Of a stretch of 64,000 bases of DNA, positions 1,602 to 43,788 are shown in pieces. Position 1 is the first letter of the stretch, and each line of letters starts with the position of its first letter. Under the pieces are notes generated by a model, which ran no database searches, was not told where the DNA came from, and saw nothing but the letters and a program-made list of their open reading frames with translations. Source of the DNA: an uncultured Desulfobacterales bacterium (GTDB taxonomy: Bacteria; Desulfobacterota; Desulfobacteria; Desulfobacterales; UBA11574); contig CALLDL010000033.1 in the NCBI GenBank assembly GCA_937998305.1, positions 6,094 to 70,093 on the forward strand. Reading direction: 5' to 3'. The position numbers and the translations under genes were made by a program.

Positions 1602-2990
1602 TCAAAACGGCCATGTTAACTTCATTCCCGGTCCTCTGAACCATGTCCCGGTTACAGTCAATATGAGAAATACCACCAAAATAAAAACAAAAAGCGCTTG
1701 GGTGGTTTCATTATTCGAAGCGGAATACCGGTGTTTTATGAGGATGTAAAATCCTGCACATCCGAAAAAAATGAATGCAAACGGGATGAGACCGTTGCCG
1801 AAAAAAGTCGGAATACCGCTTAATCCGGCGGCAAAATCGATGAGGTACTCGTCCGCCAGAATTCCCATAGGTCCGGCGGCTATTGCGATAAGACCCGCAA
1901 TCAGGGCCATCTTTCGCCCTTTTATAGAAGCAAACCAGATACCCTCGGTGTTGGTGTCGTATTTCAGATAGGGTATTCCCATCAAAGTGACAAACAAAAC
2001 CAATGGAATGATAAACACCGCAAACAGCGGATGAAGATGCAGCAGGAGTTCTTGAAGCCCGGCAAAATACCATGGCGCTTTGGTGGGGTTGGGGCTCAAT
2101 CCGGGATTGGCTGAATCTCCCAAAGGGGTATCAAAAGAAACGGACACCACCATCACAACAGCGATAAGCACCAGGGCCACCACTACTTCACGGAGAAGTA
2201 GATGAGGCAGGGTCGGTACTCGAACCGGTTTTTTTTCAATATCTTCTCCCGATGCTCTGGGAATAACCAGGCCACCTGTTTTACGGATTCTCCAAAAATG
2301 AAAGGCCATTAGTATGATCAGGCCCACCGGAACTACAGCCGTGTGTATGGCAAAAAATATGCTTAGCGTAGCCGGACCAATTTCATTGCCGCCTTGAATT
2401 ATTTCTTGCAGTCGGTTACCAACTACAGGGATGTATTCCAGCATGCCAGTGGAGACTGTTACCGCCCAGTAAGCCAGTTGATCGTAGGGCAACAAATAAC
2501 CGGTAAAATTGGCGGTTAACACCAGGCCAAACAACCCCAGACCGATAATCCAGCTAAACTGCCGCGGCGGATGAAAGGCACCGGTGAAAAATACCCGCAA
2601 CATGTGCAGAAACACGATCAGCACCAGAAAGTTGGCACACCAGTGGTGAATGTTGCGAATCAGGTATCCGAACATCACCTCGTTTTGCAACATCTGAATC
2701 GATGAATAGGCGGCAACAGGAATCGGCTTATAGACAAACTTAAGCAAAAGCCCCGTTCCAAACTGTAGAATTATCAACAGAGCCGCCATTCCGCCCAACC
2801 CCCATGTTAGGGAAAATTTCAGTGTTTTTTCCGGAACCGTAGGGGGTCTAAAATGCAGAATGAGATTCTTTAACAGGTAGCGCTTGCGCTCCTGGTCAGA
2901 TTTTGGAATAAGTGGATAAGGGAAAATGGAACGAAATAGTTGATGGAAAAATCCTGTGGTCTCCGGTGATGGCTTATGTTTTGGTTTCAT
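1602..2990 (-). CDS. cytochrome b (b6-like N-half fused to subunit-IV-like C-half)
   Basis: 462 aa polytopic protein. Heme-ligand His pairs occur in NIHHWCANFLVLIVFLHMLRVF and FFAIHTAVVPVGLIILMAFHFW. It is followed in the same direction by the Rieske and cytochrome c genes. Confidence 0.9.
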   Translation of the reverse strand: MKPKHKPSPETTGFFHQLFRSIFPYPLIPKSDQERKRYLLKNLILHFRPPTVPEKTLKFSLTWGLGGMAALLIILQFGTGLLLKFVYKPIPVAAYSSIQMLQNEVMFGYLIRNIHHWCANFLVLIVFLHMLRVFFTGAFHPPRQFSWIIGLGLFGLVLTANFTGYLLPYDQLAYWAVTVSTGMLEYIPVVGNRLQEIIQGGNEIGPATLSIFFAIHTAVVPVGLIILMAFHFWRIRKTGGLVIPRASGEDIEKKPVRVPTLPHLLLREVVVALVLIAVVMVVSVSFDTPLGDSANPGLSPNPTKAPWYFAGLQELLLHLHPLFAVFIIPLVLFVTLMGIPYLKYDTNTEGIWFASIKGRKMALIAGLIAIAAGPMGILADEYLIDFAAGLSGIPTFFGNGLIPFAFIFFGCAGFYILIKHRYSASNNETTQALFVFILVVFLILTVTGTWFRGPGMKLTWPF

Positions 2991-3149
2991 TCAAATGCTA
3001 AAAATAGAGAGTACAATTGTTAAAAGCACCTCCTATTACCATCGACAGAGTTTCCGGTCAAGCCATGATTTATCAAGGTTAATATCACAAGGCTTGGGGT
3101 CACTTTTCAGATGAAATATCCAAAAGTTTTGAATTGATGATTTGGAACC

Positions 3150-3247
3150 AAGGCCGAATCCATCATCAGGGTGTTCTGGATTTAAGGTTTAAAGCATAAA
3201 CCTATCATTCTGATGTTTCCAGAACTCCTGATGACAAATTCGGCCTT
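3150..3247. repeat. imperfect 31-bp inverted repeat (long hairpin) in intergenic region
   Basis: AAGGCCGAATCCATCATCAGGGTGTTCTGGA (3150-3180) pairs with TCCAGAACTCCTGATGACAAATTCGGCCTT (3218-3247). An inner AGGTTTA/TAAACCT stem is also present. Confidence 0.5.
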
Positions 3248-3378
3248 CAGTGAACTTTAAATGATGATCAGTCCTTTAGACCGGTTCAGGTTTTCTAGTA
3301 ACCACGACATGTTTTTATCATTTGGCAAGCAAATTTGAACTTTTTTTCTAAAAGCGCTTAGCAAAGTGAAGCGGACAA

Positions 3379-4464
3379 TTAATCAAGACCCATCACAATA
3401 CTTTCAACCCGCCTGTTTTGCTGGCGTCCCTCTTCCGTGCTGTTGCTGGCCACCGGATCTTTTTTGCCGTACCACTGGGTGATGATTCTCCCGATACTCA
3501 CCCCAGAGTATTGGGTCAGGTAATCCTGAACCTTTTCGGCCCTGCGTCTGGCAAGCCACAGGTTGTATTCTTTAGAACCGGTAATGTCGGTATATCCTGA
3601 AAGAACAACATATGTTTTAGGATGCTCTCGTAAGAAATCCCCCAGTTTGTTCAGTTCCTCATTAAACGAAGATGGTATGACCGAACTGTTGAAATCAAAC
3701 TGGATGTTGTCGACCTTTAAGCCGGCAAGATAATCTATGGTTTCAATTGTTTCAATTGTTTTAACATCAATTTCATAAAGGGCGCCGGTCATGTATTCCG
3801 GTCTTCCCAGCAAATATTCAAAAGGAACCACCCGAGAACACTGGTTGATCGATGCCAAAGCCTTCAATATTTCTTTATGATGGCCACCCTTGGCAGTGCT
3901 GATGACATAAAAGCAGACATCTTGTTTGTCGGCGATTTCTTTTGCGATGTCAACCGGCTTTTTCATGCCGGGGGTGGGTGTGTAATAGCCGTCGGTAAAG
4001 AGAAAAACCACCGTTCTTCCTGAAAGCCCTGCTAAAACACCACGAAGCTTACTCAGACTTTCCACCATCAGCGTTGCGCCACTTCCCTTGGCCGGTAATT
4101 GATCCAGAGCAGCAGCAACTTTTTCCCGGTCATATTTCTGCACCGCGTAAATGGGTTTGAAGTTCGAAAGCAAATATAACCCGGCATTGTATCCCAAATC
4201 CGGCAAGGTTTTGTTTTTTTCTTTGAGAATTTCCTTGGCTGCTTCTAACTTTGACATGCTGGTGTTCCGGTATGGCTCTTTCATAGAGCTGGATGAATCA
4301 AACAGAATAATAAAATTGTCTGCTGTTTTTACAATTTCTACTTCTTGTGCGACGGTCGTAACCGTATCTTGTTCTATGACCTTTTCGGCGGCCATGACAT
4401 GGGGCCCAGTTAAGCCGAGAAACACCAGACCTAAAGCACTTAAAATTATGAACAGTTTTTTCAT
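3379..4464 (-). CDS. secreted vWA domain protein with C-terminal OmpA-like peptidoglycan-binding domain
   Basis: Signal peptide MKKLFIILSALGLVFLGLTGPHVMA. vWA-like block FIILFDSSSSM. C-terminal OmpA signature SGYTDITGSKEYNLWLARRRAEKV...NRRVE. Confidence 0.8.
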   Translation of the reverse strand: MKKLFIILSALGLVFLGLTGPHVMAAEKVIEQDTVTTVAQEVEIVKTADNFIILFDSSSSMKEPYRNTSMSKLEAAKEILKEKNKTLPDLGYNAGLYLLSNFKPIYAVQKYDREKVAAALDQLPAKGSGATLMVESLSKLRGVLAGLSGRTVVFLFTDGYYTPTPGMKKPVDIAKEIADKQDVCFYVISTAKGGHHKEILKALASINQCSRVVPFEYLLGRPEYMTGALYEIDVKTIETIETIDYLAGLKVDNIQFDFNSSVIPSSFNEELNKLGDFLREHPKTYVVLSGYTDITGSKEYNLWLARRRAEKVQDYLTQYSGVSIGRIITQWYGKKDPVASNSTEEGRQQNRRVESIVMGLD

Positions 4465-4700
4465 TGACGAACCTCCTTTTGTTTGATTTTCATTGATAAA
4501 GTTGGCCTATTTTTTCATTTTTGCAAACTTTTAAACCCTCTATGGTCAGGTTGTACATCAATCTCTTTGGCAGTGGCGGCTTAAACGTCAGCTGACTGAA
4601 AAACTGCAAATCATATGACCATGAGAGCAATAACGGCAACGATTGTCAAGTTGCTTTTTTTTCAAACCGTGTAATAACGACAGAGGCGGATAATCCCTAT

Positions 4701-7121
4701 TTACCATTTAAACTGGGAATCCGATTTCAATGCAATCCGGTTGAATCGGTACATATCAAACAGACCTGCTTCAACCGGTTCGTCCTTGAGAAACTTCTCG
4801 TAATGCCAGTCAGATTCTGTCCAGAAACTGGGATCGGTTCTTCGTATGGCATACTTTCTGGCAAAATTGTAATAGCTGAGTTGATCCTTTATTTTGAGAA
4901 AATCTTCAACAACATCCTCTATCTGTTCGATGTGAACACGACAGAACGCGTTTGGATAGCTGCCCACGTAACCCTTTACAAGTGTAAGAGTGTCGTCATC
5001 GACAATGCGCCTTCTCTCTTCACTAAACATGATTGAATTATTGCTCAGCGCCTTGTTTCGGATAACGGTATAGGCCAAGTCATTATCCTTATCACCGGTA
5101 ACAACATGAATAAAGGTCACATCCGGGACCACCTGTATCTCAGGGCCGCGAATCCTCGTCATTTTTCTCAGGGCAAGATCTGCTCTCTGTTCAAGAGGAC
5201 TTGAATTTTCATCAACACAGTTTTTTTCAGGACAGCGGTTCAAATAGTCGTTTGCATTGGCAGCCGGACCTACATACTTGTGTATTTTTTCAAAAAACTC
5301 CTTTTTAGGGTCGTCTGTTGTGTAGACAATTTGGGTGTCCCATTTAAGCCCCCGAAAAGGGTTCTGCAGGTGACTCTTAAATTCAGCTCTTGCACCCTTA
5401 TACCATTCTGCCCGGATCTCCTTGCGCTTATCATTTGGAAGGAAGCTTAAAAAATTGTTTTCTCCCTCCATGCGGAGAAAGTCCATATAGAGACGGGTTT
5501 CGAGTTGATGCCCCACATTGCCATACACGTTGAAACCGGCAACCAGCAGATAATGGATACGCTCAAAAAGTGGAAAGTCAATTACCCAACCGGTTTTGGG
5601 AATTTCTCCCACAAACCCCTTGACAACGCTGGCGCTATCAAAATGTCTGAAAACGGTCAACAGCGCATTGTCATTGTAACCATCGCCGTTCCAGATATGG
5701 GTTATATCATTTCCCCTTTTATCCGGATCCAGTTTGGCAAGATACTGTCCCTTGGCATCCAGGTATTTTTTTTGTTTCCGGTAATAGTCCCACCAGATGC
5801 TCATGATTTTGATATTGCTCTCTCTTTCGGCCGGCAAGTCTAAAAAATCACTTACATTGGCAAGAAAGGTTGTATCATTGCTGATGGTGTCCTTTTTTGG
5901 ATCAAAAAAGGACACAAAGAAGTGGTCGTTAATGACATTAAGGGCGACCTGGCCGCGGCAAACAGGCCCTTTGATAAACCCCATATAGAAAAACTGGGCA
6001 TCATCCAGCAAAAACCTGTAACGGGACCCGGCAGGCAGATCTGCAAATGTCTTGAAGGGATTGGAGGCAGTTTCAGGATCATAGGAGGGCAGTTTATTAA
6101 CCTCATAATCGTTTTGCAGAAAGAGCTGCCGATAGCGATCCATTTTTTGCCGGTTCATGCGATAAACCGTGTGATTTTTTACAACAATGGTTGTTTCTAT
6201 TTTACGAAACCGATAGTAGAATTTTTCAATCCCGGGATCATCATAAGGTCTATCCGTATTGATCTCAACCACCGGTTCTCCCGGAGGTGTTTCAGATCGA
6301 ACTAAACGGTAAAATTCCCGGTCCGGAAAAGAATCAAAATGGATGTGGGCGATGAATAGATGTTCATAAATATAGCGTGACACAAGCTGCTGCTTTAAAG
6401 AACTGCCGTTAAAAAACTCCTCCCACGGATCTATGACCTGTTTTGCCTGATCCGACATCTTAGGCCGAACAGTAACCACGGCCCCCTGAATCAGCCAGTC
6501 AACGATGGTTTTATGTTCCTTGTCAGTCAAACCGGGTAATGCATAGGGCATTCCCCAGAGCGGATATTTTTTCTTGTATTCATTGAAATCTTCTGCAGTT
6601 GTACATTCCTGTTTTCGATCAAGGCTGATATCAAAGGCGGCCGGCAGTAGTTCCGTTGTTGGCTGAGGATGCTCTTTTTTCAGCTCGAGCATCATATTCA
6701 CCACGGAGTTTTCAAGATTTGCCTGGGGCGTCTGATCCCTCTCGTTGAGAACCGGATGAAACTCCATCCTTCGCCATTTTTCCACTGAATCGGCATCAAT
6801 AAAAAGACGGGTCGGTTTTACCCGTTTTAACCTGCTTGTGTCATAAACCAGCTTTTTAGTGCCGCCGCGCTCGATTCCTTCAAAACAGGTCAGTTTTAGC
6901 TGACATGGCGCATCATAACAGCCGTGGCACACATCACAGCGACGTTCCAGTATAGGCTGCACATCATCATAAAAAGAGATCTCACCGGGCGCAAGAAAAT
7001 CAACACGCCGATCTACGGTCTGCACCGGCCCGAATTTTTTGTCCAGCTTTGCAGCCCTGTACGCAGTGCATCCGGCCAGAATGATCAGGGCCGTGATGAA
7101 AAAGAGAAAGGTTTTTTTCAT
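4701..7121 (-). CDS. cti: fatty acid cis/trans isomerase (CTI family, heme c)
   Basis: 806 aa. Lipoprotein-type signal ...IILAGC. N-terminal RCDVCHGCYDAPCQLKL matches the conserved CxxCH-containing CTI signature known from Pseudomonas Cti. Confidence 0.8.
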   Translation of the reverse strand: MKKTFLFFITALIILAGCTAYRAAKLDKKFGPVQTVDRRVDFLAPGEISFYDDVQPILERRCDVCHGCYDAPCQLKLTCFEGIERGGTKKLVYDTSRLKRVKPTRLFIDADSVEKWRRMEFHPVLNERDQTPQANLENSVVNMMLELKKEHPQPTTELLPAAFDISLDRKQECTTAEDFNEYKKKYPLWGMPYALPGLTDKEHKTIVDWLIQGAVVTVRPKMSDQAKQVIDPWEEFFNGSSLKQQLVSRYIYEHLFIAHIHFDSFPDREFYRLVRSETPPGEPVVEINTDRPYDDPGIEKFYYRFRKIETTIVVKNHTVYRMNRQKMDRYRQLFLQNDYEVNKLPSYDPETASNPFKTFADLPAGSRYRFLLDDAQFFYMGFIKGPVCRGQVALNVINDHFFVSFFDPKKDTISNDTTFLANVSDFLDLPAERESNIKIMSIWWDYYRKQKKYLDAKGQYLAKLDPDKRGNDITHIWNGDGYNDNALLTVFRHFDSASVVKGFVGEIPKTGWVIDFPLFERIHYLLVAGFNVYGNVGHQLETRLYMDFLRMEGENNFLSFLPNDKRKEIRAEWYKGARAEFKSHLQNPFRGLKWDTQIVYTTDDPKKEFFEKIHKYVGPAANANDYLNRCPEKNCVDENSSPLEQRADLALRKMTRIRGPEIQVVPDVTFIHVVTGDKDNDLAYTVIRNKALSNNSIMFSEERRRIVDDDTLTLVKGYVGSYPNAFCRVHIEQIEDVVEDFLKIKDQLSYYNFARKYAIRRTDPSFWTESDWHYEKFLKDEPVEAGLFDMYRFNRIALKSDSQFKW

Positions 7122-7155
7122 AAATCAACTCCCGTTGTTCGTTAACATTTCGCAA

Positions 7156-8766
7156 TCAGCGGCGGCCAACAATCCGTATCTTCTTAATGGCCTCCGGTCC
7201 TATATTGACAAACTCCGGTACATTGGCGGCATAGCGGTTATCACTAAAACGGGATAAGCATATCGGAGGACTGTCAACACCGTTTTTATCGATATGTGTC
7301 AGGAAAATTTCCGTAAAAGGGGTGTTGGTTTTGGAACTGAACAGCATCCAATTTCCATTGGGCGAAAAACTGTGCCAGGAGTTGAAAAGCTTACGGTTGC
7401 ATTTCATCCTTCGGGGATCACCGCCGGCAGCAGGTATAATGAAGAGCTCGCTGTCCGGCTGCAACATGATGCCGGTTTTACTGCGAGTAAAGACAATCCA
7501 CTTCCCGTCCGGGGAAAATCTCGGGAAATAGTTGCTCATTCCATTATGACTCGCACCTCTCAGAGGTTCAGGAGTCCCGCCGTTTCCCTGATTGAATGGA
7601 ATTCTGTAAAGATCGAACTGTATGGGAAACCTTTGATTCAACGCATGAATATCAGCATCTTCGGTATGGGTTTGGATGTTTGAGATGTCTTTGTGGTATT
7701 CATTTTTTGTGTTTGCTCTGGCAAATACAATATGCTTTTCATCCCAGCTCCAGCTCGGGTCTGTCTGTACAAAGTCATAATCATCCGCTCCAGGGAGGAG
7801 ATGAAACGCCTTTTTGTCAACCGAATACCAGGCCAGCACGCCGTAAGTCGGGAAGAAGAGCTGGCAGAAGGCAAAATCGTTGGTCAGAGCAGCATAGGAT
7901 ATCTCATGTACCGTACTTACGATGTATTTTCCGGTAGGCGACATTTTTGCAAACAACCCCCGGGTTTTTGGCAGAAGTTCCGGTTTCGGGAAATCATTCC
8001 AGGAGATAAAGTTCGCTTCAGACAATTCGATTTTTTCTTTGACCTTAGTGATAAAATGAGCACCGCTGTCATTATTGTAGTTCATCTCCATACTGATTAA
8101 AGCGCCGTCTTTCGAGAAGAGATGGCAGCTTGCACAAACAGAAAGATTCTTCATTACCACCGCCGGTTTTTCATATGAAGAGATATCGCCAAGACGCCAC
8201 TTTATCTTTTTGAAGTTTTTTTTCCCGACCTTAAACGGGAGCTGAACCTGGCGATAAAATATTGATGCATCAACAGGATCTTTTGAAGTGGAGATGCGGA
8301 TGCTATTTTTTGCAGTGATGTTGCATGCATGTTTGTTGTCAAAACCGTAAACAATGATTTTTGCTGAACCACGGACTGAGTTGGCTTTGATGATCTCCCA
8401 GGTCGGTTTGTCCGGTTCCCAGTAGTGCTTATCCGCAAATGCATAAATCGGCGCATGCTCACCGCTGAATTCAACCATGATAAGCCAGTGTTTCGAGGCA
8501 GTGTTGGTGTCATTCCATGTAATAACAGGTGCAGCGATTTCAGGAGGGAAAACAGCTCCGTCATAGGGGTATGTGATGAGCAAACCGCTGTTGTTTTCGA
8601 TTTTCTCACCATTTTTGATGAGTTTCTGTACCTGATGCAGAGTTTTTTCCGACATCCTTTCCGGTTCGCTCATCCGGCTGTCCCCATTGTTGTCCCCGGA
8701 AAATGCGCTATGGCCCATTGCAATACTTAACAGCAGAATAAAAAGCAGGCTCGATGTCTTTTTCAT
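7156..8766 (-). CDS. periplasmic protein with one CxxCH heme motif and TolB-like (PD40) beta-propeller repeats
   Basis: Signal peptide present. CASCH motif in LSVCASCHLF. PD40-like repeats FSPDGKWIVFTRS and FSPNGNWMLFSS. Lies 34 nt upstream of cti on the same strand. Confidence 0.65.
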   Translation of the reverse strand: MKKTSSLLFILLLSIAMGHSAFSGDNNGDSRMSEPERMSEKTLHQVQKLIKNGEKIENNSGLLITYPYDGAVFPPEIAAPVITWNDTNTASKHWLIMVEFSGEHAPIYAFADKHYWEPDKPTWEIIKANSVRGSAKIIVYGFDNKHACNITAKNSIRISTSKDPVDASIFYRQVQLPFKVGKKNFKKIKWRLGDISSYEKPAVVMKNLSVCASCHLFSKDGALISMEMNYNNDSGAHFITKVKEKIELSEANFISWNDFPKPELLPKTRGLFAKMSPTGKYIVSTVHEISYAALTNDFAFCQLFFPTYGVLAWYSVDKKAFHLLPGADDYDFVQTDPSWSWDEKHIVFARANTKNEYHKDISNIQTHTEDADIHALNQRFPIQFDLYRIPFNQGNGGTPEPLRGASHNGMSNYFPRFSPDGKWIVFTRSKTGIMLQPDSELFIIPAAGGDPRRMKCNRKLFNSWHSFSPNGNWMLFSSKTNTPFTEIFLTHIDKNGVDSPPICLSRFSDNRYAANVPEFVNIGPEAIKKIRIVGRR

Positions 8767-35269: not shown

Positions 35270-35435
35270 ATAATTCCTTTCTATCGAGATAACAAAATCG
35301 ACCTATTCCGAATGTTTCATGAAAATTTTCGAGAGATCTTTTTATTATTGATGAAAACAGTTTGTTATTTACAATTTTGGTTCTTGTTATAAGATGACAA
35401 TTTGCCCGAAGATTTTCTTGTTCAATTTCTCAAAA

Positions 35436-35525
35436 ATTTTCACCCTGCGGGCGTGTGCGAGACGCTCATTAGCCGCGTTATAAAGGGCATGCAAATGAAC
35501 GCCTCGCACACGTGAAATATCCGGG
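35436..35525. repeat. long-hairpin repeat, family E copy 2
   Basis: ATTTTCACCCTGCGGGCGTGTGCGAGACGC...AAATGAACGCCTCGCACACGTGAAATATCCGGG. CGTGTGCGAG and CTCGCACACG are complementary. Confidence 0.6.
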
Positions 35526-36105: not shown

Positions 36106-36181
36106 GGGGCTGTAGCTCAGCTGGGAGAGCGCATGACTGGCAGTCATGAGGTCGACGGTTCGATCCCGTTCAGCTCCACCA
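36106..36181 (+). tRNA. tRNA-Ala (anticodon GGC), CCA encoded
   Basis: GGGGCTGTAGCTCAGCTGGGAGAGCGCATGACTGGCAGTCATGAGGTCGACGGTTCGATCCCGTTCAGCTCCACCA. Cloverleaf folds. G3:U70 Ala identity pair present. Anticodon loop CTGGCAG. Confidence 0.95.
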
Positions 36182-36190
36182 AGGATTATA

Positions 36191-36221
36191 AAGGGTTAGC
36201 CAATTCGGTTAACCCTTTTTT
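36191..36221 (+). terminator. rho-independent terminator after tRNA-Ala
   Basis: AAGGGTTAGCC-aattc-GGTTAACCCTT (11-bp stem) followed by TTTT. Confidence 0.7.
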
Positions 36222-36517
36222 AGTTGAATTATCATGACTGGGTGCAGGGGGGTGCAAGTGGGTGCAGTTTTAGAGTCTAATTGATCGACTTCCGATTTTT
36301 TATGATTCATAGCTGAATATGTGTCAATGAAAGATTCAGCATATAACTTGAAGGAAGGTATTGATTTGGCTTTCTTTTCCTCAAAGCCAAACTCACCGAG
36401 CTGCAGCTTTGCCCGGATTGTACTTGCTACGGCCTCGGCTGATTTCCTGTCACCCTCTTTTCGGGACGTCCGTTTCCCGTTATGGGATATGAACACCCAC
36501 CAGGGATTTCCCCTGCC
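36209..36517 (-). pseudogene. tyrosine recombinase (phage-type integrase) N-terminal remnant
   Basis: ...GRGNPWWVFISHNGKRTSRKEGDRKSAEAVASTIRAKLQLGEFGF... resembles integrase N-terminal (arm-binding/SAM-like) regions. An upstream in-frame TAG sits at 36518-36520. There is no catalytic domain. It lies directly adjacent to the tRNA. Confidence 0.65.
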
Positions 36518-36822
36518 CTAAGTTTTTTGTCTGACTCTTACTTCCATAATAAACCCCTCACTTTCTCCCTGAGGTTAATCCACGGGCAGGGACGTCCTTT
36601 TCAGCCGTATGCGCCTATCCCGTGGGGTTAGTATTATGTAAAACTTTTCATAAATATTATGGAGTATACCCCATAATCTCATGTACTTTGCCATAAATCA
36701 GTGCTTTAAATCAGATCTTTTAATTAATGTAACCATCTAATTTAATTGCAATTTAAATTGATTTGCGCCACAATTATCTGATTTTGCATGGTTTTTGCAC
36801 GTTTAAATAGAAAGAAGCCATC

Positions 36823-36933
36823 ATGAGAAATTCCATTAAAGATTTTATTAAAGACTTTATTCTTTTAGCATTTTTCATAGTTTGCATTATAGCTTCCTTT
36901 TTTTATGCTTTTAATATGACTTCTTTTTTATAA
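36823..36933 (+). CDS. possible 36-aa hydrophobic peptide (below ORF-track cutoff)
   Basis: My translation: MRNSIKDFIKDFILLAFFIVCIIASFFYAFNMTSFL. A strong hairpin terminator follows at 37006-37048. No clear RBS. Confidence 0.25.
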   Translation: MRNSIKDFIKDFILLAFFIVCIIASFFYAFNMTSFL

Positions 36934-37005
36934 AGCAATAAATAACCATATGGCATTATTTTTTGAGTGTTAGGCTATAAATTACTTCTTCGCAGCCTAA
37001 CCTTC

Positions 37006-37048
37006 TATAGCCCCTGGGTACATGTAGCCCCAGGGGCTATATATTTTT
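37006..37048 (+). terminator. rho-independent terminator-like hairpin
   Basis: TATAGCCCCTGGG-tacatgtagc-CCCAGGGGCTATA (13-bp stem) followed by TATTTTT. Confidence 0.55.
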
Positions 37049-37344
37049 CCAGGACAAGCCCGAAAGCTCATCCTGGGCGGTTGATGGTTTTAGTTCATAA
37101 AAGAAGGCTCCGGCCTATGGTTCCCCCCCTTCAAAAACAAAAGCGCCTGAAGGCTTTCCACGGTCCAAGATAATAAACCGCCCACAACGTCACCGCTGCA
37201 AGTGCCTTCAAGCGCTATGTTTGATAATTGGTGTTTCATTTTACTGTGGAATTGGGTTAAATTAGCGGTGCTTCATTTATTCATATAAATATAATGCCAC
37301 CTTTTTTTATTGATTTGAATATATGAATATTGTAAAAGGTGTGT

Positions 37345-37497
37345 ATGGCACGAAAAAACATGACAACAAGTATTGAAAATGACCTCCAGAAAGAGATTAA
37401 AAAGCTCGCCATCGATTTAGAAAGACCTCTAAATGACCTTATAGAAGAATCCTTCCGGGATCTTCTCAAAAAATACGAAAAGAAAGATAAAACATAA
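37345..37497 (+). CDS. ribbon-helix-helix (CopG/Arc-like) small protein (below ORF-track cutoff)
   Basis: My translation: MARKNMTTSIENDLQKEIKKLAIDLERPLNDLIEESFRDLLKKYEKKDKT (50 aa). It has the beta-strand, helix, helix pattern typical of RHH proteins. It replaces the antisense 37281..37544 track ORF. Confidence 0.55.
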   Translation: MARKNMTTSIENDLQKEIKKLAIDLERPLNDLIEESFRDLLKKYEKKDKT

Positions 37498-37536
37498 CAT
37501 TCTAAGTCAGAGATATTCTTATTGAGAGGATCTATA

Positions 37537-37719
37537 ATGAGCATGGGCGATTTTCAGGCTGACCAAGTTGGATATTATGGGAAACCAGTGTCTTCTTTAA
37601 CCAAGGATGAACTACTTAAAGCTGTATTGGAGATATCCGAGATAATTTATAATTGCCCTGTAAAAGGCAAATGCAGTGAAATTTTAGAACGTATAGAGCA
37701 GGAAAAACTCAAAAAATAA
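37537..37719 (+). CDS. small hypothetical protein
   Basis: MSMGDFQADQVGYYGKPVSSLTKDELLKAVLEISEIIYNCPVKGKCSEILERIEQEKLKK. GAGAGGA lies 6 nt upstream of the ATG at 37537. Confidence 0.4.
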   Translation: MSMGDFQADQVGYYGKPVSSLTKDELLKAVLEISEIIYNCPVKGKCSEILERIEQEKLKK

Positions 37720-37814
37720 CCTGTAACCGAGAGGTTGACATGGACTGATTACCAAGACCCCATTTCTCATAGAGGTGGGGTTTTGTATTTGCATTGAACT
37801 AGGGAGGATGATTA

Positions 37815-38264
37815 ATGGGAAAATTTTATGTTGATGAAAACAATCAAGCTAGGATTAACTGTCACAACTGCGGATTAAATAAGAATTTAGATGTAACAAA
37901 ATTTAAGGATACTCATAAAAGGCTGAAGGCCAAATGTCGATGTGGCGAAGTTTTTCGGCTTACCTTGGATTTTCGAAGGCATTACCGTAAGAATGTCAGG
38001 CTTGCTGGTGAATACTTTGTCCAGGGAAAAAATGAAAAGGGAGAAGTACTCATCGAAGACATTTCAATGACCGGAGTCAGATTTGCAACTCTTAAGCCAC
38101 ATAATATTTTCAAAGATGATACAGTTGAATTGAAATTTACTTTAGATAATCCAATGAGAACGAAAGTCCAAGAACTCGTCAAAATAATAAGGACTATCGA
38201 TCGCAATGTTGGTGCACAGTACATCAACCAAAGTCGGATGCAAAGGATTTGGTTTTTTGTATAA
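37815..38264 (+). CDS. PilZ-domain (c-di-GMP-binding) protein with N-terminal zinc-ribbon
   Basis: CHNCG...CRCGEVF zinc-ribbon. PilZ motifs RRHYRK (RxxxR) and EDISMTGVRF (D/NxSxxG). Confidence 0.75.
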   Translation: MGKFYVDENNQARINCHNCGLNKNLDVTKFKDTHKRLKAKCRCGEVFRLTLDFRRHYRKNVRLAGEYFVQGKNEKGEVLIEDISMTGVRFATLKPHNIFKDDTVELKFTLDNPMRTKVQELVKIIRTIDRNVGAQYINQSRMQRIWFFV

Positions 38265-38615
38265 AAACTTAATTTGTCCTTAGACAGAGACGTTTTGACA
38301 ATTTTCAAAAAACAGAATTTGCCTAACCTGACACCAGAAAAATATGATATCTGTAGATCAATTGTTGTTGTGAATGGTGTCGATACTGATAAGATATTCA
38401 AAGAAAGGACAGGGTATAATTTTTGCGATGCGATATTTCCGCATCACAATTTCGAATGAACAAAGGTAATTGTTAGATATCTGGCATCACACATCAAGCC
38501 AAACGACATATTCCTGTTTTTTCGAACAAACTTCTATATTCCTGACGATATGTTCGAATTCAAAATGCATTTATTATACTGTTTTAATTGGGTTTATTTT
38601 TTTCGATAGTTTAAT

Positions 38616-38902
38616 TTAAACATTGGCACTACTTGTGCGCCAGGTCCGCTCTTTCTTGATCTCAGTGGGAAGCTTGCCTATACGACAGTATTTACGCGCG
38701 GTTTTCTCATCCATATCCGCCTTGGCAGCTGCTGTCGCATATGTCTTTTCTGTCTGTATCAATTTCATCAGTCTCCTCACCTGATTGTTTGTGACCATCC
38801 AAGTCTCCTCCGTTGTTTTGATTAAGACTCGGATGTTTTATCGACTTCTTCACTCAACGGGAATTATAATTGTCGTCAGGTGGGAATTATAATTGTCGCA
38901 CA
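38616..38902 (-). mobile_element. truncated IS end: terminal repeats plus N-terminal 60 codons of a DDE transposase (IS21-like, family assignment tentative)
   Basis: The end reads TGTGCGACAATTATAATTCCCA (minus orientation). The 17-mer GGGAATTATAATTGTCG is repeated at 38859-38875 and 38882-38898. The ORF MVTNNQVRRLMKLIQTEKTYATAAAKADMDEKTARKYCRIGKLPTEIKKERTWRT... has an HTH-like N-terminus and then stops. Confidence 0.6.
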
Positions 38903-39002
38903 TCACCATACAGAGCCGTCTCTGACATCGCTCGTGTAACGTTTCGTTTTTGCACGTTTAAATGCGACCCCTCATTTTTTTTAAAAAAAACAAATAATTA
39001 GC

Positions 39003-39031
39003 TTGCTTTCTTTCTCAATAATGATTATTAT
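39003..39031 (+). promoter_or_regulatory. candidate sigma70 promoter of the cold-shock gene (long 5' UTR)
   Basis: TTGCTT (39003-39008), 17-nt spacer, TATTAT (39026-39031). This leaves a leader of about 120 nt before the ATG at 39158. Confidence 0.45.
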
Positions 39032-39157
39032 GCCTCTAATCAACTAAGTCCTGTTTAATCTTCGGGACGGTTTTCTCTCTGAAGGAATAATCCATTTGTC
39101 AAAGTGGCACCCTCCAGTTTGCGAAGTTGAAAAATTTTAAGAAAGGAGGATGTTATC

Positions 39158-39358
39158 ATGACCAATGGAACTGTTAAGTGGTTTAACGACCGAAAAGGGT
39201 TCGGATTTATTGAGCAGGAAGACGGGCCGGATGTGTTTGTTCATCATTCAGCGATCAACGCAAACGGTTTTAAATCCCTCAATGAAGGCGACCGAGTTTC
39301 CTTTGATATAGAGCAAGGACAAAAAGGTCCTGCCGCTGCAAATGTCACTGTGATCTAA
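39158..39358 (+). CDS. cold-shock protein (CspA family)
   Basis: [33 protein letters not shown]... with RNP1/RNP2 motifs KGFGFI and VFVHH. AGGAGG RBS present. Confidence 0.95.
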
Positions 39359-39376
39359 CCTTATGTTCTAAATAAA

Positions 39377-39417
39377 AAGGGCATTCCTTCTAATATTGAG
39401 GGGATGCCCTTTTGTTT
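39377..39417 (+). terminator. rho-independent terminator after csp
   Basis: AGGGCAT...ATGCCCT stem (39378-39384 with 39404-39410) followed by TTTTGTTT. Confidence 0.7.
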
Positions 39418-39530
39418 GGTTTGAATTTTATTTTCCCGATTCGCTATCATCAGACCTTAAACCTCAAAATTCCCTCATAGATCCTGTTCTTGTTGTCATT
39501 ATCAAAAATAACAGCCAAGGAGGTAACAAA

Positions 39531-39683
39531 TTGGCAAGATCAAATTATTCATTTAAAAAACGCCAGAAAGAATTAGCAAGGAAGAAAAAGAAAGAACAAA
39601 AAAGACAACGCAAACTGGATAAAAACGCTATAAATTCAGAAGAGAATCCAAATCAGCCCCAGAATGAAGGAGAGAATCTATAA
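39531..39683 (+). CDS. small highly basic protein (50 aa)
   Basis: AGGAGG-N6-TTG start. LARSNYSFKKRQKELARKKKKEQKRQRKLDKN... The upstream part of the track ORF (from 39396) overlaps the csp terminator, so I shortened it. Confidence 0.4.
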   Translation: MARSNYSFKKRQKELARKKKKEQKRQRKLDKNAINSEENPNQPQNEGENL

Positions 39684-39714
39684 GCGTAGAAACAGGATGA
39701 AAAGGAGAAAAGAT

Positions 39715-40065
39715 ATGCGTCAAAAATATGTGATTTCTCGAGATGATGCTAAAAACAAACTCAAAATCAGGGAATATGCAATCATCGACAAAAATCTGAA
39801 AAAAGTGGCGTCTTCAATGCTGCAAAAGGGAAGTTTTTCATTTCTCTGTGAAGAAACTTATGAAAGTGAAATTATCGTGAGTTCCATCTCCAAAGGAATG
39901 AACGCCTTGGTTGCAATCCTTCGGACCCACAATATATTTCCTATCGAACCATATGCCACCAAAATCGCCGAATCAGTCACGGCGTTATACAATTCATCCG
40001 AAGATAATTCGGTGGAGCTGTTTTTTGACGACGTCGATTTGGTATCTGCTTTGGTACCTGGCTGA
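39715..40065 (+). CDS. hypothetical protein
   Basis: AAGGAG lies 7 nt upstream of the ATG at 39715. MRQKYVISRDDAKNKLKIREYAIIDKNLKK... No recognised motif. Confidence 0.5.
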   Translation: MRQKYVISRDDAKNKLKIREYAIIDKNLKKVASSMLQKGSFSFLCEETYESEIIVSSISKGMNALVAILRTHNIFPIEPYATKIAESVTALYNSSEDNSVELFFDDVDLVSALVPG

Positions 40066-40258
40066 TATGTTATCGATATTTGAAACCAGATAATTTGAAA
40101 TATCAAAAACTAACCTTGGACAATTAAAGGAACGGTACTAAATAAACTGATATCCACCGAACAGAGATAATGTGCCTGAACACAGCACTCTGGCAGGTAG
40201 GTGCTGCCCTTGGTATGAGTGATGACTTAAAAGAAGGGTTTATTGAGGAGACAAAAGG

Positions 40259-40474
40259 ATGGAAAACAGATTGGATGATTTATTTCTGAAGTTTCAAACA
40301 AAGGGGTTTATGCCCATTGAAATCCAAGGACTCATTAAAGATGTTTTTAATATTTTAAGTAATGGTGGATATTGCTCTATAACCGCTGTTAACCAAGAGA
40401 TGGAGGAACTGGGCTGGGGGATAGAAATCATGGATAATGTTACGTACGAATTAGTAAACTCCCTGGTTCAATAA
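40259..40474 (+). CDS. hypothetical protein
   Basis: 71-aa ORF with GAGGAG upstream. No recognised motif. Confidence 0.45.
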   Translation: MENRLDDLFLKFQTKGFMPIEIQGLIKDVFNILSNGGYCSITAVNQEMEELGWGIEIMDNVTYELVNSLVQ

Positions 40475-41000
40475 AAAATGGCAAACATTCTTATCATAAT
40501 GGATATGTGGTCAAAAGCCATTTTGTTTGTGATGAGTTAAAACATAAGATGCCCACCTTAATAATAACAAAATCTTGCACCACGGAGCAATACTTAAAAA
40601 GGGGTTTTTCGATAGTCTCGCTATAGATGGCAGGTTTTTAAGACCTTTAAATTGTTGTGATATATAGTTTTAATAGTTTCAGATTGTCACCGAATAAGTT
40701 TCAATAAAGCCCTGCACATGCAAAAAAAATGTGCCAGATCACTGAAACTTATTCATTTACAAAAATCACCGTATCTCTCCATTTGTCATAACCATTTCGC
40801 AACCTTTCGACCCCAAAACCTTTATCGCGCTAGTGTCCCCGTTTATCCATCCCCCCTCAATACAAACGAAAAATATCCGCTTATAGGGTGAGCCTGGAAT
40901 GCATTTGGCCTTGAGGATTTCGAAAATTTGTTATGATCCATTAGGTTTAAATCTTTTAGTTCAGGATAGTCGATTGATTTCATTGTATTAATTGGCCATT

Positions 41001-41034
41001 CTGGCAGTCATGAGATCGACGGTTCGATCCCGTT
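41001..41034 (+). repeat. direct repeat of the tRNA-Ala 3' half (att-site-like island boundary)
   Basis: CTGGCAGTCATGAGATCGACGGTTCGATCCCGTT matches tRNA positions 36137-36170 at 33 of 34 nt. Similarity decays afterwards (TACTCCAGCA versus CAGCTCCACCA). Confidence 0.8.
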
Positions 41035-41188
41035 TACTCCAGCAATAGAAAAAAAAGGTTGGCTTATGAGGCTGCCCTCTTTTATTATTTGCTCATTTTT
41101 TTAAACGCAGATTTCCCTTCTTGTCTTGACATAATAAGTATATTGGCTTAAGAAATTTTTAATTTTATCAATGATAAATGGTTAAGTC

Positions 41189-41758
41189 ATGATGAAAAAC
41201 CACAATATATGCAATGTATTTTTTTTCGTTATTGCCGGAATCGTCATATGCGTCGCTTTTTTGAATGTGCCCGTAGTATCATCGGGTATGGATCAAGTTG
41301 AGCGAAACACAAGAATTATAGAAACTAAACAATCAAAAAACCCCGTTGTCCATCTATATTTTTCCGACAAAGAGAATTCGTTTCTCAAAGCTGAAACAAG
41401 GGATCTTTTTCATTCAGACAATCCAGTCGAATTTGGCAAAAACATTGTCGAAGCCCTGATAGAAGGCCCTAGGACCGGGCTTATGCGGACAATTCCTGCA
41501 GATACGACACTTAAGGCATTTTATATTTCCCGGGATGGTACAGCTTATGTCGATATGTCTGATACCATTAGAGATGCTCATCCCGGCGGGGTTAAATCGG
41601 AACTTTTTTCGATATATTCGATGGTCAATTCATTAACATTGAACATTCCCGAAATCGATGCGGTAAAGATCCTGATCAGCGGAAAAGAAGCGATGACCCT
41701 GGACGGTCATATAGATGTGCGTTTTCCGTTTAAAGCCAACATGCTTTTAATACGATGA
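41189..41758 (+). CDS. GerMN-domain protein (secreted/membrane-anchored)
   Basis: N-terminal TM/signal segment. [39 protein letters not shown]...[44 protein letters not shown]. Confidence 0.7.
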
Positions 41759-43788
41759 AAAAAAAGGATCACATTAAAAATATAAGAAATATCGGTATTA
41801 TCGCCCATATCGATGCCGGAAAGACAACGGTAACAGAGCGGATGCTATACTATACCGGCCGTTCTCACAAAATCGGTGAAGTGCATAACGGTGAAGCGAT
41901 TATGGACTGGATGCCTGATGAACAAGAACGGGGAATTACCATTACCTCCGCTGTTACCACTTGCCACTGGAAGGGAAGTGATGTCCAGATCATAGATACA
42001 CCGGGGCATGTCGACTTTACCATCGAGGTTGAACGTTCTTTAAGGGTACTTGACGGGGCCGTCGGTGTCTTTTGTGCAGTTGGTGGTGTGGAACCTCAGT
42101 CGGAAACGGTATGGCGACAGGCTGACAAGTACCTTGTCCCAAAGATGGCCTTTATCAACAAACTTGACAGGGTTGGTGCAGACTTCTTTGGCTCAATTGA
42201 GATGATGAAAAAAAGGTTAGATGCCAATCCGCTGATTTTACAGCTGCCGGTGGGCTTAGAAGATGATTTTTCAGGCGTTATCGATCTCATTAACATGAAA
42301 CAAATCATCTGGGAGGATGAAGCTTTAGGAGAAACTTTTACGAAAGAAGATATTCCTCAAAACTTGCTTGGCACCGCAACAGAATATCATGAAAAACTTA
42401 TCGAAGCCATCGCTGAAGTTGATGATGATATCATGGAGGACTATTTATCAGAGACACCCGTCACTCTGGAAAGATTGATTGGCGCTATCAGAAAGGCGAC
42501 CATAGACCTGAAACTGGTGCCGGTCCTTTGCGGCAGTGCTCTGAGAAATAAAGGAATACAACCGCTTCTTGACGCCATTGTAAAATTTTTGCCAAGCCCT
42601 TTAGATGTACCCCCAATTAAAGGCGTACACCCTGAAACCGGCCAACATATTGAATGCAGAGCGAATGATGCCGATTCTCTTGCAGCCCTCATATTCAAAG
42701 TATCGATGATAGAGGGTCGTAAACTATCCTATGTCAGAATTTACAGCGGAACCATGAATGCCAAAGCAGACACCTACAATTCTTCTCGAAAAAAAAGTGA
42801 GAAACTTTCACGCATATTAAAAATGCATGCCAACAAGAGAGAACGTATCGATTCCGCCGGCGCCGGCAGCCTGGTCGGGGTTATTGGATTAAAAGAGTCT
42901 TCTACGGGAGAGACGCTCTGCTCCATCGATCATCCTGTTTTATTGGAAAAAATAGAGTTTTACGAGCCGGTTATATCTGTGGCTGTTGAGCCTAAAACCC
43001 ATGCTGACCAGGAAAAACTTGATCAAGTCCTCGAAAAATTTATGGCTGAAGATCCGACACTTAAACTTCAAAAGGATGAAGACACCGGACAGACAATTTT
43101 ATCCGGTATGGGAGAACTTCACCTCGAAGTTATCATCAGTCGTATGCAGCGAGAATTCAAGACCAATGTCAATGTGGGAAAACCACAGGTTATGTACAGG
43201 GAGACCATCGAAAAAGAAGGGCATGCATCTGCAGTATTTGACAAGGAAGTGGCGGGACAAAGACATTTTGCCAAAGTAATGTTAAAACTGACACCTTTGG
43301 AACGGGGTACTGAAAACAGATTCAGGTCTGAAATTACTGACGAAACAATACCTGATATGTTCATCCCGACTATCAAAAAGGGTGTGATGGAATCCCTGGA
43401 AAGCGGAGTATTAATGGGGTATCCTGTTGTTGATGTTGAGGCCGTTCTCACCGGAGGAGTAAATAAAGAATCTTTGAGCACTGAACTGGCCTATACGGTC
43501 AGTGCATCTATGGCTTGCAAAACAGCACTGACGAAAGGTGAATCGTTTCTCCTTGATCCGATTATGAATGTGGAAGTTTTTGTTCCAGAGGCTTTTGTGG
43601 GAGACGTGATAGGGGATCTCAATTCGCGAAATGGAAAAATTGAATCTATCGAGCACAAAATGGGCGTACAGGTGATAAAGGTTGTGGTTCCACTGGCGCT
43701 CATGTTCGGATATTCAACATCATTGCGATCAGCCACACAGGGCAGAGGGACATTCACCATGCAATTTTCTCATTTTGACCGATGCTAA
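41755..43788 (+). CDS. fusA: elongation factor G family GTPase (EF-G paralogue)
   Basis: G motifs [17 protein letters not shown] and NKLD. 677 aa. The start overlaps the GerMN stop (ATGA). Confidence 0.9.

Follow-up and report, generated by a model that had tools for sequence, protein, structure and literature searches.

A decayed integrative element in the tRNA-Ala(GGC) gene of an uncultured Desulfobacterales bacterium and the cold-shock protein operon found within it

The 64-kb stretch of DNA analyzed here, which we will call the window, comes from an uncultured Desulfobacterales bacterium and carries, from position 36106 onwards, a 4.9-kb segment that is very probably the dead remnant of a small integrative element inserted in the tRNA-Ala(GGC) gene. 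The remnant comprises a duplicated attachment (att) site, an integrase pseudogene with short repeats at its side, a few small genes, and a block of three genes encoding a cold-shock protein (Csp), a very basic protein of 50 amino acids (aa) (basic50), and a 116-aa protein (h116). An earlier description of the segment, made from its letters alone (the sequence-only reading), had already proposed a decayed island at this tRNA. We have compared the window with related genomes or metagenome contigs, labeled Lnnn, including 80 Desulfobacterales loci collected by a scan with the elongation factor G (EF-G) protein, one genome per species, and a metagenome contig of a conspecific strain (L097) that is 97% identical to the window.

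The intact tRNA-Ala(GGC) gene (36106-36181, plus strand) is the sole tRNA found by ARAGORN in the window. It scores 64.2 bits with the Rfam tRNA model, and the alanine identity pair G3:U70 can be read directly from its sequence. Its 3' part appears again about 4.9 kb downstream. A repeat finder returned a direct repeat of 34 nucleotides (nt) between 36137-36170 and 41001-41034, identical at 33 of the 34 positions (97%), for which we calculate a chance expectation of about 4e-14 (one mismatch or fewer in 128 kb) to 1e-13, and a scan of both strands of the window for the 34-mer, allowing up to three mismatches, found it nowhere else. The first nucleotide of the displaced copy corresponds to tRNA position 32, in the 5' side of the anticodon loop. 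The copy matches tRNA positions 32-65 and runs on in degraded form to the tRNA 3' end, where 41035-41045 carry two substitutions and one deletion (TACTCCAGCAA vs. CAGCTCCACCA). No resemblance to the 5' half of the tRNA was found upstream of 41001, either in the window or in any relative.

The sequence-only reading had predicted that an empty site should show tRNA-Ala directly followed by the GerMN and EF-G genes, and this arrangement was found in nine genomes (L003, L019, L020, L023, L025, L050, L053, L067, and L069), in which the genes lie within 150-300 bp of the tRNA. The EF-G of L003 is 93% identical to that of the window, and the other eight genomes are more distant. Positions 41001-42000 of the window align as a single colinear block with the 3' half of the intact L003 tRNA and its terminator, and the sequence after the window fragment (TAGAAAAAAAAGGTTGGCTTATGAGG...) is the terminator that stands behind the tRNA in L003, so that 41046-41095 (plus strand) represent the native tRNA terminator region. 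This colinearity demonstrates that the fragment at 41001-41045 (plus strand) is the displaced native 3' part of the gene (attR) and not a second degenerate tRNA, and also that the working tRNA owes its present 3' part, and the hairpin terminator behind it, to the insert (attL). The stretch 36137-36181 is, accordingly, a duplicated 3' part that was supplied or renewed by the element. The terminator in the interval from the tRNA 3' end to the integrase stop (36190-36218, a 12-pair stem followed by a T run) is supplied by the island in place of the native one. It is conserved in L001, L002, and L127, and analogous hairpins are present in L086 and L088.

Fragments orthologous to attR, independently decayed, were also found in L001, L002, L005, L109/L110, L123, and L125/L127. 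Those of L001, L002, and L005 have the same junction as the window and are each differently decayed, with 5-6 mismatches, and the displaced fragments of the window and its relatives all begin at one anticodon-loop position, which is where the crossover would have taken place. The window fragment has GACGG like the working tRNA, and those of L001 (9245), L002 (4238), and L005 (1582) share ATCGG. One possible cause of GACGG in the window fragment is a gene conversion from attL to attR in the window lineage, which would explain the 33/34 identity next to a degraded acceptor end. In L003 (9208-9283) the T-stem of the tRNA is AGGGG/CCCCT, vs. GACGG/CCGTT in the attL of its relatives and ATCGG/CCGTT in the displaced fragments, a T-stem that is not accounted for by a simple recombination of attL with attR.

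The integrase pseudogene (36209-36547, minus strand) lies immediately inside attL. Its frame, read from 36547 to 36209, is MEVRVRQKT*GRGNPWWVFISHNGKR...SAMNHKKSEVDQLDSKTAPTCTPLHPVMIIQLKKG*, it runs toward the tRNA, and its stop codon is 28 nt from the tRNA 3' end. Codon 10 (36520-36518) has changed from AAG to TAG. A protein search with the remnant returned 66 relatives, many of which have phage-integrase SAM-like core-binding domains directly after the matched part, and the homologous integrases carry PF14659, PF22022, and PF00589. The matches of this search were confined to about 1.75 times the query length, and the lack of full-length integrases among them was therefore discarded as an effect of that limit. 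The DNA of three full-length relatives was obtained as well (L086, L088/L089, and L090), and the protein of L086 scores 76.9 bits with Phage_integrase and 46.1 bits with Phage_int_SAM_3. Residues 1-85 of the window remnant are 68% identical to residues 1-85 of the L086 integrase, and 66-68% identical to the N-termini of full-length integrases. The Pfam family Arm-DNA-bind_2 gave a weak 14.3 bits on the remnant (cut-off 22), and this part appears to be the arm-binding domain plus the start of the core-binding domain. At the other end, KKSEVDQLDSKTAP aligns with residues 380-394 of the L086 integrase (KKSEVDELDYGKAP) and residues 372-380 of that of L088, the tail of the L090 integrase (...KSEVDELDSLHPAAPYPHPNP...VVLIQKVS*) resembles it likewise, and remnant residues 83-96 match the C-terminal end of full-length integrases. 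The remnant matches both ends of full-length integrases and is thus two gene ends, residues 1-85 and the last ~27 residues, joined in frame at a KKS microhomology (about 36293-36301), so that about 300 codons, with the core-binding and catalytic domains, were lost by an in-frame deletion. The PF00589 catalytic domain (R-H-R-Y) is absent from the window open reading frame (ORF), and it is present in L086 and in the remnant of a different integrase in L032 (Phage_integrase, 58.6 bits). The sequence-only reading was right about the in-frame stop and the missing catalytic domain, but the remnant is not solely N-terminal, since the last ~27 codons and the stop have been kept.

The homologous integrases are also convergent with a tRNA gene, tRNA-Arg(ACG) in L086 and tRNA-Glu(CTC) in L088. 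Each of the full-length homologs in L086 (10001-11227), L088 (4432-5628), and L089 (386-1582) contains one in-frame stop, at a different codon, TAG in L086 and TAA in L088 and L089, and gene callers split these homologs into an N-terminal ORF of 74-88 aa and an ORF of ~300 aa. Programmed recoding at these stops was considered and rejected, because the different codons and the use of both TAG and TAA indicate independent pseudogenizations. L001 gave a tblastn match to integrase residues 75-96, but this was likewise rejected as a shared N-terminal remnant, since it is mostly csp upstream region, which also occurs in the non-island locus L094. We also noticed in L086 a c-di-GMP-I-GGC riboswitch (5350-5446, minus strand; 69.4 bits, above the gathering score of 59) that is unrelated to the island and lies, in a 6.2-Mb genome, at a distance of about 4.5 kb from the integrase gene.

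Between the integrase stop and the tRNA there are three exact repeats of GGGTGCA (36240-36266, plus strand; copies at 36240, 36250, and 36260) with a 10-bp phasing, which account for 3 of the 7 exact copies in the 64 kb. In L086 and L088, two to three copies of TGCACCC, 10-11 bp apart, occupy the same interval between the integrase stop and the tRNA, with a hairpin between the repeats and the tRNA, and in L090, on a contig without a tRNA, TGCACCC lies inside the last codons of the integrase gene. The motif is therefore kept in the P' arms of four elements with a common putative arm-binding domain, three of them at three different tRNAs. The opposite arm of the element, the P arm, corresponds to 40830-41000 (plus strand), as defined by the alignment with L001, L029, and L026. 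L029 and L026 are younger insertions at the same tRNA-Ala site, with fragments that have 1-2 mismatches, and their last 150 bp align with the window and L001. At 105-125 bp from the core, GGGTGCA is present in three intact copies in L029 and in one to two in L026, and decayed arm-type copies (GGGTGAG and GGAATGCA, at 40887-40904) were found in the window and L001. The N-terminal domain is the best-conserved part of this integrase family and the motif is common to elements with different tRNA targets, making GGGTGCA the probable arm-type site of the integrase. With the core-binding and catalytic domains deleted, codon 10 changed to TAG, and mutations in the repeats of the P arm, the island would be too damaged to move now, as the sequence-only reading had proposed.

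An int-alpA-like RNA motif (36567-36625, minus strand; Rfam RF02996) lies in the integrase 5' leader, 20 nt before the ATG at 36547. This motif occurs upstream of integrase and alpA genes in islands and prophages. The window sequence scores 31.0 bits and that of L090 34.8 bits, both under the gathering score of 35.8. The window motif resembles RF02996 in its place directly upstream of the integrase start, in the outer stem, the first hairpin, the GAAAAG and CCUG elements, and the AGGG ribosome-binding site that follows, but it differs from it in the low score and in a collapsed second hairpin.

The age of the insertion was estimated from its distribution. Trees were built by gap-free neighbor-joining on the right flank (3,994 columns), giving (((window,L032)99,L001)100,(L003,L004)100)100,(L002,L005)100, and on the left flank (2,121 columns), giving (window,L001,L003)100 with L002 outside. 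The same attR junction is found in the window, L001, L002, and L005, and island genes are also found in L004. The shared junction, together with the genes of L004, shows that the insertion is older than the clade, and it predates the split of at least seven species-level lineages. Further metagenome carriers are L103, L109/L110, L117, L122, L123, and L125/L127. According to this phylogeny L003, which has an empty site and is nested in the island-bearing clade, lost the island secondarily and in register. The sequence-only reading would have been contradicted by relatives carrying the same genes without any tRNA-derived repeat, a case that mostly fails: L001, L002, and L005 carry fragments, and L032 and L004 have Csp-block genes and have lost the tRNA fragment through secondary deletions spanning that region.

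The carriers also differ in what they have lost. In the interval from the tRNA to the csp upstream region, 2.1-2.7 kb are left in the window and L097. L002 and L123 retain the integrase tail there, L001 retains the integrase tail and ~125 bp more of the csp upstream region, and in L127 the sequence ...CATGACTGG is joined directly to the csp upstream region. These different endpoints (L001, L002, L123, and L127) indicate independent deletions from a longer ancestor. None of them has lost the tRNA, the terminator that came with the island, or the Csp-basic50-h116 block, which is preceded by 220 nt or more of its upstream sequence in every case. Deletion seems to continue within the species: L097 lacks window positions 38301-38909 (609 bp, at 2187-2204 of L097), the breakpoints of which, at 38283-38296 and 38909-38920 of the window, share ACAGAGnCGT, an example of continuing microhomology deletion.

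The same tRNA has received other insertions. In L032 and L122 the C-terminal end of a different integrase (...RYAHLT.EHKKKAVNLL...) abuts the tRNA, L007 keeps next to the tRNA a 46-aa scar of an integrase of the L032 type, and no GGGTGCA was seen in the L032/L122 P' arm stretch that was read, although no formal scan was made. This second type of integrase in L032 and L122, together with the insertions of L026 and L029, indicates that the tRNA-Ala site has been used repeatedly. The inserts of ~6 kb in L007, L008, and L010 were examined as other islands and rejected, since between tRNA-Ala(GGC) and GerMN these three loci (3500-9400 in L007) contain the haem biosynthesis genes hemE, hemN, hemH, and hemY, the last one encoding protoporphyrinogen oxidase. 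In L032, the stretch from the PilZ gene to the csp block (2950-7370) holds a creatininase-like fragment and a frameshifted hydantoinase/oxoprolinase-like pair, which are not mobile-element genes.

The block that all lineages have kept starts with the csp unit (38906-39413, plus strand), comprising the promoter and a long 5' leader (38906-39157), the gene (39158-39358), and a terminator with a 16-bp stem (39375-39413). The 66-aa product scores 106.1 bits with CSD (PF00313; cut-off 27), and the promoter and terminator that the sequence-only reading had attributed to this gene are present. With its 66-aa CSD protein, AT-rich upstream region, leader of ~120 nt, and strong terminator the gene resembles the CspA-family genes with a long leader, but it differs from them in being always followed by the 50-aa basic and 116-aa proteins and in the thermoregulator model, since the cspA thermoregulator (RF01766) gave only 32 bits on the leader, under the gathering score of 78. 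The basic50 gene (39531-39683, plus strand) encodes the very basic 50-aa protein of the earlier description, which has a very basic N-terminal part and an isoelectric point (pI) of 10.2. It is intact in all relatives, and no family match was found for it. The h116 gene (39715-40065, plus strand) always occurs with the other two. Its product has 651 homologs, the best 120 of which are all 84-98% identical, and it gave no sequence match in Pfam, NCBIfam, PHROG, or PDB. Its AlphaFold2 (AF2) model has a pLDDT of 65.7, and the best Foldseek match against PDB has an E value of ~1.

All three genes of the block are intact everywhere, and the block is under purifying selection, with ratios of nonsynonymous to synonymous divergence (dN/dS) of 0.05-0.13 for Csp, 0.12-0.52 for basic50, and 0.14-0.53 for h116. 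The synonymous divergence (dS) of the trio (0.07-0.32) is close to that of the flanking EF-G gene (0.12-0.35), which fits a descent of the trio together with the chromosome. The trio is not restricted to islands. Its sequence (38906-40065) shows 82-98% nt identity across Desulfobacterales metagenome loci (L094, L096, and L099-L176), and at most of 80 metagenome loci Csp-basic-h116 is followed by a second Csp, with no tRNA-Ala, integrase, or att fragment nearby. Fifteen of the non-island loci share their right-flank genes, and island and non-island copies are homologous in nt sequence from 220-390 nt upstream of csp to the end of h116. At the non-island loci the divergence of the trio is similar to that of the neighboring DUF374 gene (median proportion of synonymous differences, pS, 0.14 vs. 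0.19), suggesting that these loci come from close relatives, a similarity that does not discriminate between constraint and transfer. Eth-SRB2 is the one genome in which both the tRNA site and the block locus could be inspected. Its tRNA-Ala site is empty (L023), and its block is found elsewhere, at a non-syntenic locus next to a gene for a Y1 transposase (L096). The dS of the block between Eth-SRB2 and the window is 0.15-0.26, vs. 1.0-2.7 for PpiD, GerMN, EF-G, and M48. The window has only one copy of the trio and lacks homologs of the flanks seen at the non-island trio locus, so that the window by itself fits a translocation as well as a duplication. The term cargo used in the sequence-only reading has to be qualified accordingly, because relatives widely carry, outside islands, the block of which the retained Csp genes are a copy.

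The low dS of the block relative to Eth-SRB2, the non-syntenic Y1-adjacent locus, and the sharp homology ends point to a mobile cassette. It is possible, but we consider it rather doubtful, that Csp-basic50-h116 is a cassette of ~1.2-1.5 kb that moves horizontally among Desulfobacterales genera, with the tRNA-targeting elements of this integrase family as one of its vehicles. A strong constraint at the codon or RNA level on a highly expressed csp operon would lower dS equally well.

The observations can be arranged in a proposed sequence of events. A heterobivalent (lambda-type) tyrosine integrase would have recombined its attP with the segment of tRNA-Ala(GGC) that goes from the anticodon loop to the 3' end. 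The integration would have split the tRNA gene, the element giving it a new 3' part and a new terminator (attL, 36106-36220), and the native 3' part with its terminator would have been pushed 4.9 kb downstream (attR, 41001-41095). The integrase gene would have stood at the attL end, reading toward the tRNA, from which its stop was separated by three GGGTGCA arm sites in 10-bp phase, and matching sites would have lain ~100-125 bp from attR. An in-frame deletion of ~300 codons between two KKS microhomologies would then have killed the integrase, followed by a nonsense mutation, and an element of the IS21 family of insertion sequences (IS) would later have inserted upstream of csp and been truncated itself. 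Different lineages would have lost different interior parts, while selection maintained the rebuilt tRNA plus terminator and the Csp-basic50-h116 block plus promoter.

Several points weigh against this interpretation. L001 and L002 are likely, although not certain, to share the exact integrase deletion junction of the window. The left part of the island was replaced or re-invaded in some lineages (L032 and L122). No intact copy with the same cargo was found that would place the element as a prophage, a satellite, an integrative and mobilizable element (IME), or another type, replication, transfer, and structural genes are absent from the island, and scans of IMG/VR with h116 and with the full-length integrase found no relatives. 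That GGGTGCA would act as an arm-binding site is deduced from its conservation. Finally, the Csp block also lies outside islands in most related metagenome loci, and its arrival on the element is something that we infer.

Three other explanations were considered. If a second tandem tRNA-Ala gene or a local duplication had left the 34-nt match, the genes in between would be ordinary chromosomal genes. Tandem tRNA genes are common and the match covers only tRNA sequence. However, no 5' half precedes 41001 in the window or its relatives, the fragments share one start in the anticodon loop, the window fragment is followed by the terminator of the single tRNA of the empty-site genomes, an integrase pseudogene and arm repeats flank the interval, and tRNA and GerMN are adjacent in nine genomes. 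This explanation, which the sequence-only reading had named as one that could refute it, is already contradicted by these data and extremely improbable. An accretion of elements is a more serious alternative, although we think it unlikely. The Csp block and attR would come from one event, or from a separate capture, and the segment carrying the integrase, the ribbon-helix-helix (RHH) gene, and the PilZ gene from a later related element, the intermediate att site having been lost. In its favor, L032 and L122 have a different integrase at the tRNA, together with leader, RHH, and PilZ regions that are 75-84% identical to the window (75-80% in nt and 61-68% in aa for RHH-PilZ), and a PilZ dS to the window of 0.49 vs. 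0.12 for the flanks. The scar of the second integrase type in L007, the independent and younger insertions of the same family in L026 and L029, and the existence of the Csp block outside islands are also in agreement with it. Nevertheless, the window-type P' arm and integrase tail adjoin the tRNA in the deep-branching L002, L123, and L127 and in L001, which indicates that this integrase is as old at the site as the Csp block. Moreover, the interior deletions with different endpoints imply a longer common ancestor, the window shows no intermediate tRNA fragment, and its order of integrase, leader, and RHH gene is the natural one, as in L090.

The remaining explanation concerns only the block, which might never have been carried by the element. 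Illegitimate or IS-mediated recombination would instead have brought it from the chromosomal locus where it normally lies into an island that was already in place. Three observations would be expected in that case: the trio is normally found as Csp-basic-h116-Csp2 with a conserved right-flank synteny, its homology breaks off sharply ~220-390 nt upstream of csp and where h116 ends, and a Y1 transposase gene adjoins the block in Eth-SRB2. Against it, no island-bearing lineage lacks the block, which even the minimal islands of L125 and L127 contain, and its entry would have to predate the split of the clade, the adjoining IS21 fragment is specific to the window, and there is no target duplication and no transposon ends around the block. 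We regard such an entry as quite improbable.

The rest of the island consists of small genes and of remains of another mobile element. The G+C content of 36182-41000 is 37.5%, vs. a window median of 42.5%, placing it in the lowest 1% of 4.8-kb windows. Divergent from the integrase gene there is an Arc-like repressor of 50 aa with the RHH fold named in that reading (37345-37497, plus strand; PHROG 3180 Arc-like repressor, E 7.5e-11; Pfam RHH families below cut-off), and the same RHH-integrase arrangement is found in L090. It is followed by a gene for a 60-aa hypothetical protein (37537-37719, plus strand) with a terminator at 37753-37785, which gave no match in the Pfam, NCBIfam, and PHROG searches and is also present in the conspecific L097 (98%) and in L107 (76%). 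The next gene (37815-38264, plus strand) encodes a zinc-ribbon and PilZ protein, a putative cyclic di-GMP (c-di-GMP) receptor as already suggested, with 27.8 bits for PilZ (cut-off 22.5), the two c-di-GMP-binding motifs RRHYR (54-58) and DISMTG (82-87), and cysteines at 16, 19, 41, and 43. Diverged homologs are present in L032 (68%) and L122 (61%). Of the three hypothetical genes in the earlier list, that of the 61-aa ORF at 38274-38459 is doubtful as a gene, since the ORF is cut in the conspecific L097. To the right of the block, a 71-aa acidic hypothetical protein (40259-40474, plus strand) is present only in some island-bearing lineages, and its dN/dS is 0.47-0.74, on few sites.

The truncated IS end of the earlier description was also found, upstream of csp (38616-38905, minus strand). 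It is the left end of an IS21-family element, with a terminal TGATGTGC that starts with TG, two internal 17-nt repeats, and the first 60 codons of istA, encoding a helix-turn-helix (HTH) protein. Searches of Pfam and NCBIfam and a tblastn against plasmids recognized nothing in this fragment. Its assignment comes from the context of the homolog L093, where the same terminal repeats and N-terminus are followed by ORFs with Mu-transpos_C_2 and IstB_IS21, and a database relative, P0111, is named IS21 family transposase. The TG terminus, the 17-nt repeats inside the end, and the N-terminal HTH part of IstA are those of the IS21 family, but only ~290 bp are left, without the DDE domain of IstA, istB, or the right end. 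To the left of 38906 all relatives read ...TCAAGAATCATGCAAGTATCATGAAACCACAAACCTTG, whereas the window reads ...GGGAATTATAATTGTCG(N6)GGGAATTATAATTGTCGCACATCA. The fragment is absent from L001, L002, L005, L032, and L097, and is therefore specific to the strain of the window.

As for genes of phage origin, PHROG matched only the Arc-like repressor, Csp, and, with four weak non-diagnostic hits, the HTH region of the IS21 fragment, and no xis gene was recognized in the element. An exact 18-nt direct repeat (GTTTTTGCACGTTTAAAT) occurs at 36791-36808 and 38946-38963 and nowhere else in the window. One copy lies between the integrase and RHH genes and the other, conserved in all relatives, ~200 nt upstream of csp, and the pair may represent a common operator. 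The int-alpA-like leader of L090 is directly adjoined by 150 nt of conserved sequence, whose translation gives a spurious 49-aa ORF. The counterpart of this sequence in the window (37090-37239) is ~465 bp away from the leader, and the gap (36626-37090) holds a hydrophobic ORF of 36 codons (36823-36933). Outside the island, ~200 bp of the left flank (35307-35512), between a PpiD-like gene and an 82-aa zinc-ribbon gene, have no aligned counterpart in L001, L003, or L032 and are either a small insertion specific to the window or a divergent stretch.

The element can be compared with known systems. The Int protein of phage lambda is a heterobivalent integrase, with arm-type and core-type sites. 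Like lambda, the island has its integrase gene at the attL end, reading toward the att site, a conserved N-terminal domain that appears to be arm-binding, and short direct repeats phased by one turn of the helix in both arms, ~60-130 bp from the core. It differs in its target, the 3' part of a tRNA gene instead of an intergenic attB, and in the GGGTGCA motif and the integrase sequence, which are unrelated to those of lambda. In the islands in tRNA genes (tDNA islands) mapped by the Islander approach (PMC4383910), a tyrosine-integrase element splits the tRNA gene and restores it, and the regenerated tRNA and the displaced fragment mark one island end each. All of this is found in the window as well, together with the empty site in relatives. 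In comparison with them, the island of the window has an integrase pseudogene without the core-binding and catalytic domains, is only 4.9 kb long, and is fixed across several species-level lineages instead of being variable among strains.

The island is therefore of an ordinary and known kind, made by an integrase in tRNA-Ala(GGC), dead, and old. What is new is how exactly the integrase was damaged, where the arm sites of an integrase family probably lie, the comparative series of decay, and the finding that the surviving cargo is a copy of a widespread csp operon. The series comprises more than 10 related genomes or metagenome contigs with the same old insertion in different states of decay, and it shows that the rebuilt tRNA with its new terminator and the csp operon were kept, while the integrase, the regulators, and the arm sites were lost through microhomology deletions. 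For an integrase family of uncultured relatives of sulfate reducers, a likely arm motif (GGGTGCA, 10-bp phased) and the att geometry can now be proposed from sequence comparison, and this family appears to keep its arm-binding module while switching among tRNA targets (Ala, Arg, and Glu). The analysis also draws attention to a widespread operon encoding Csp, a small basic protein, and a 116-aa protein, with an unusual evolutionary behavior. If this operon were indeed a mobile cassette, the island would be the route by which the clade acquired or relocated a conserved stress operon.

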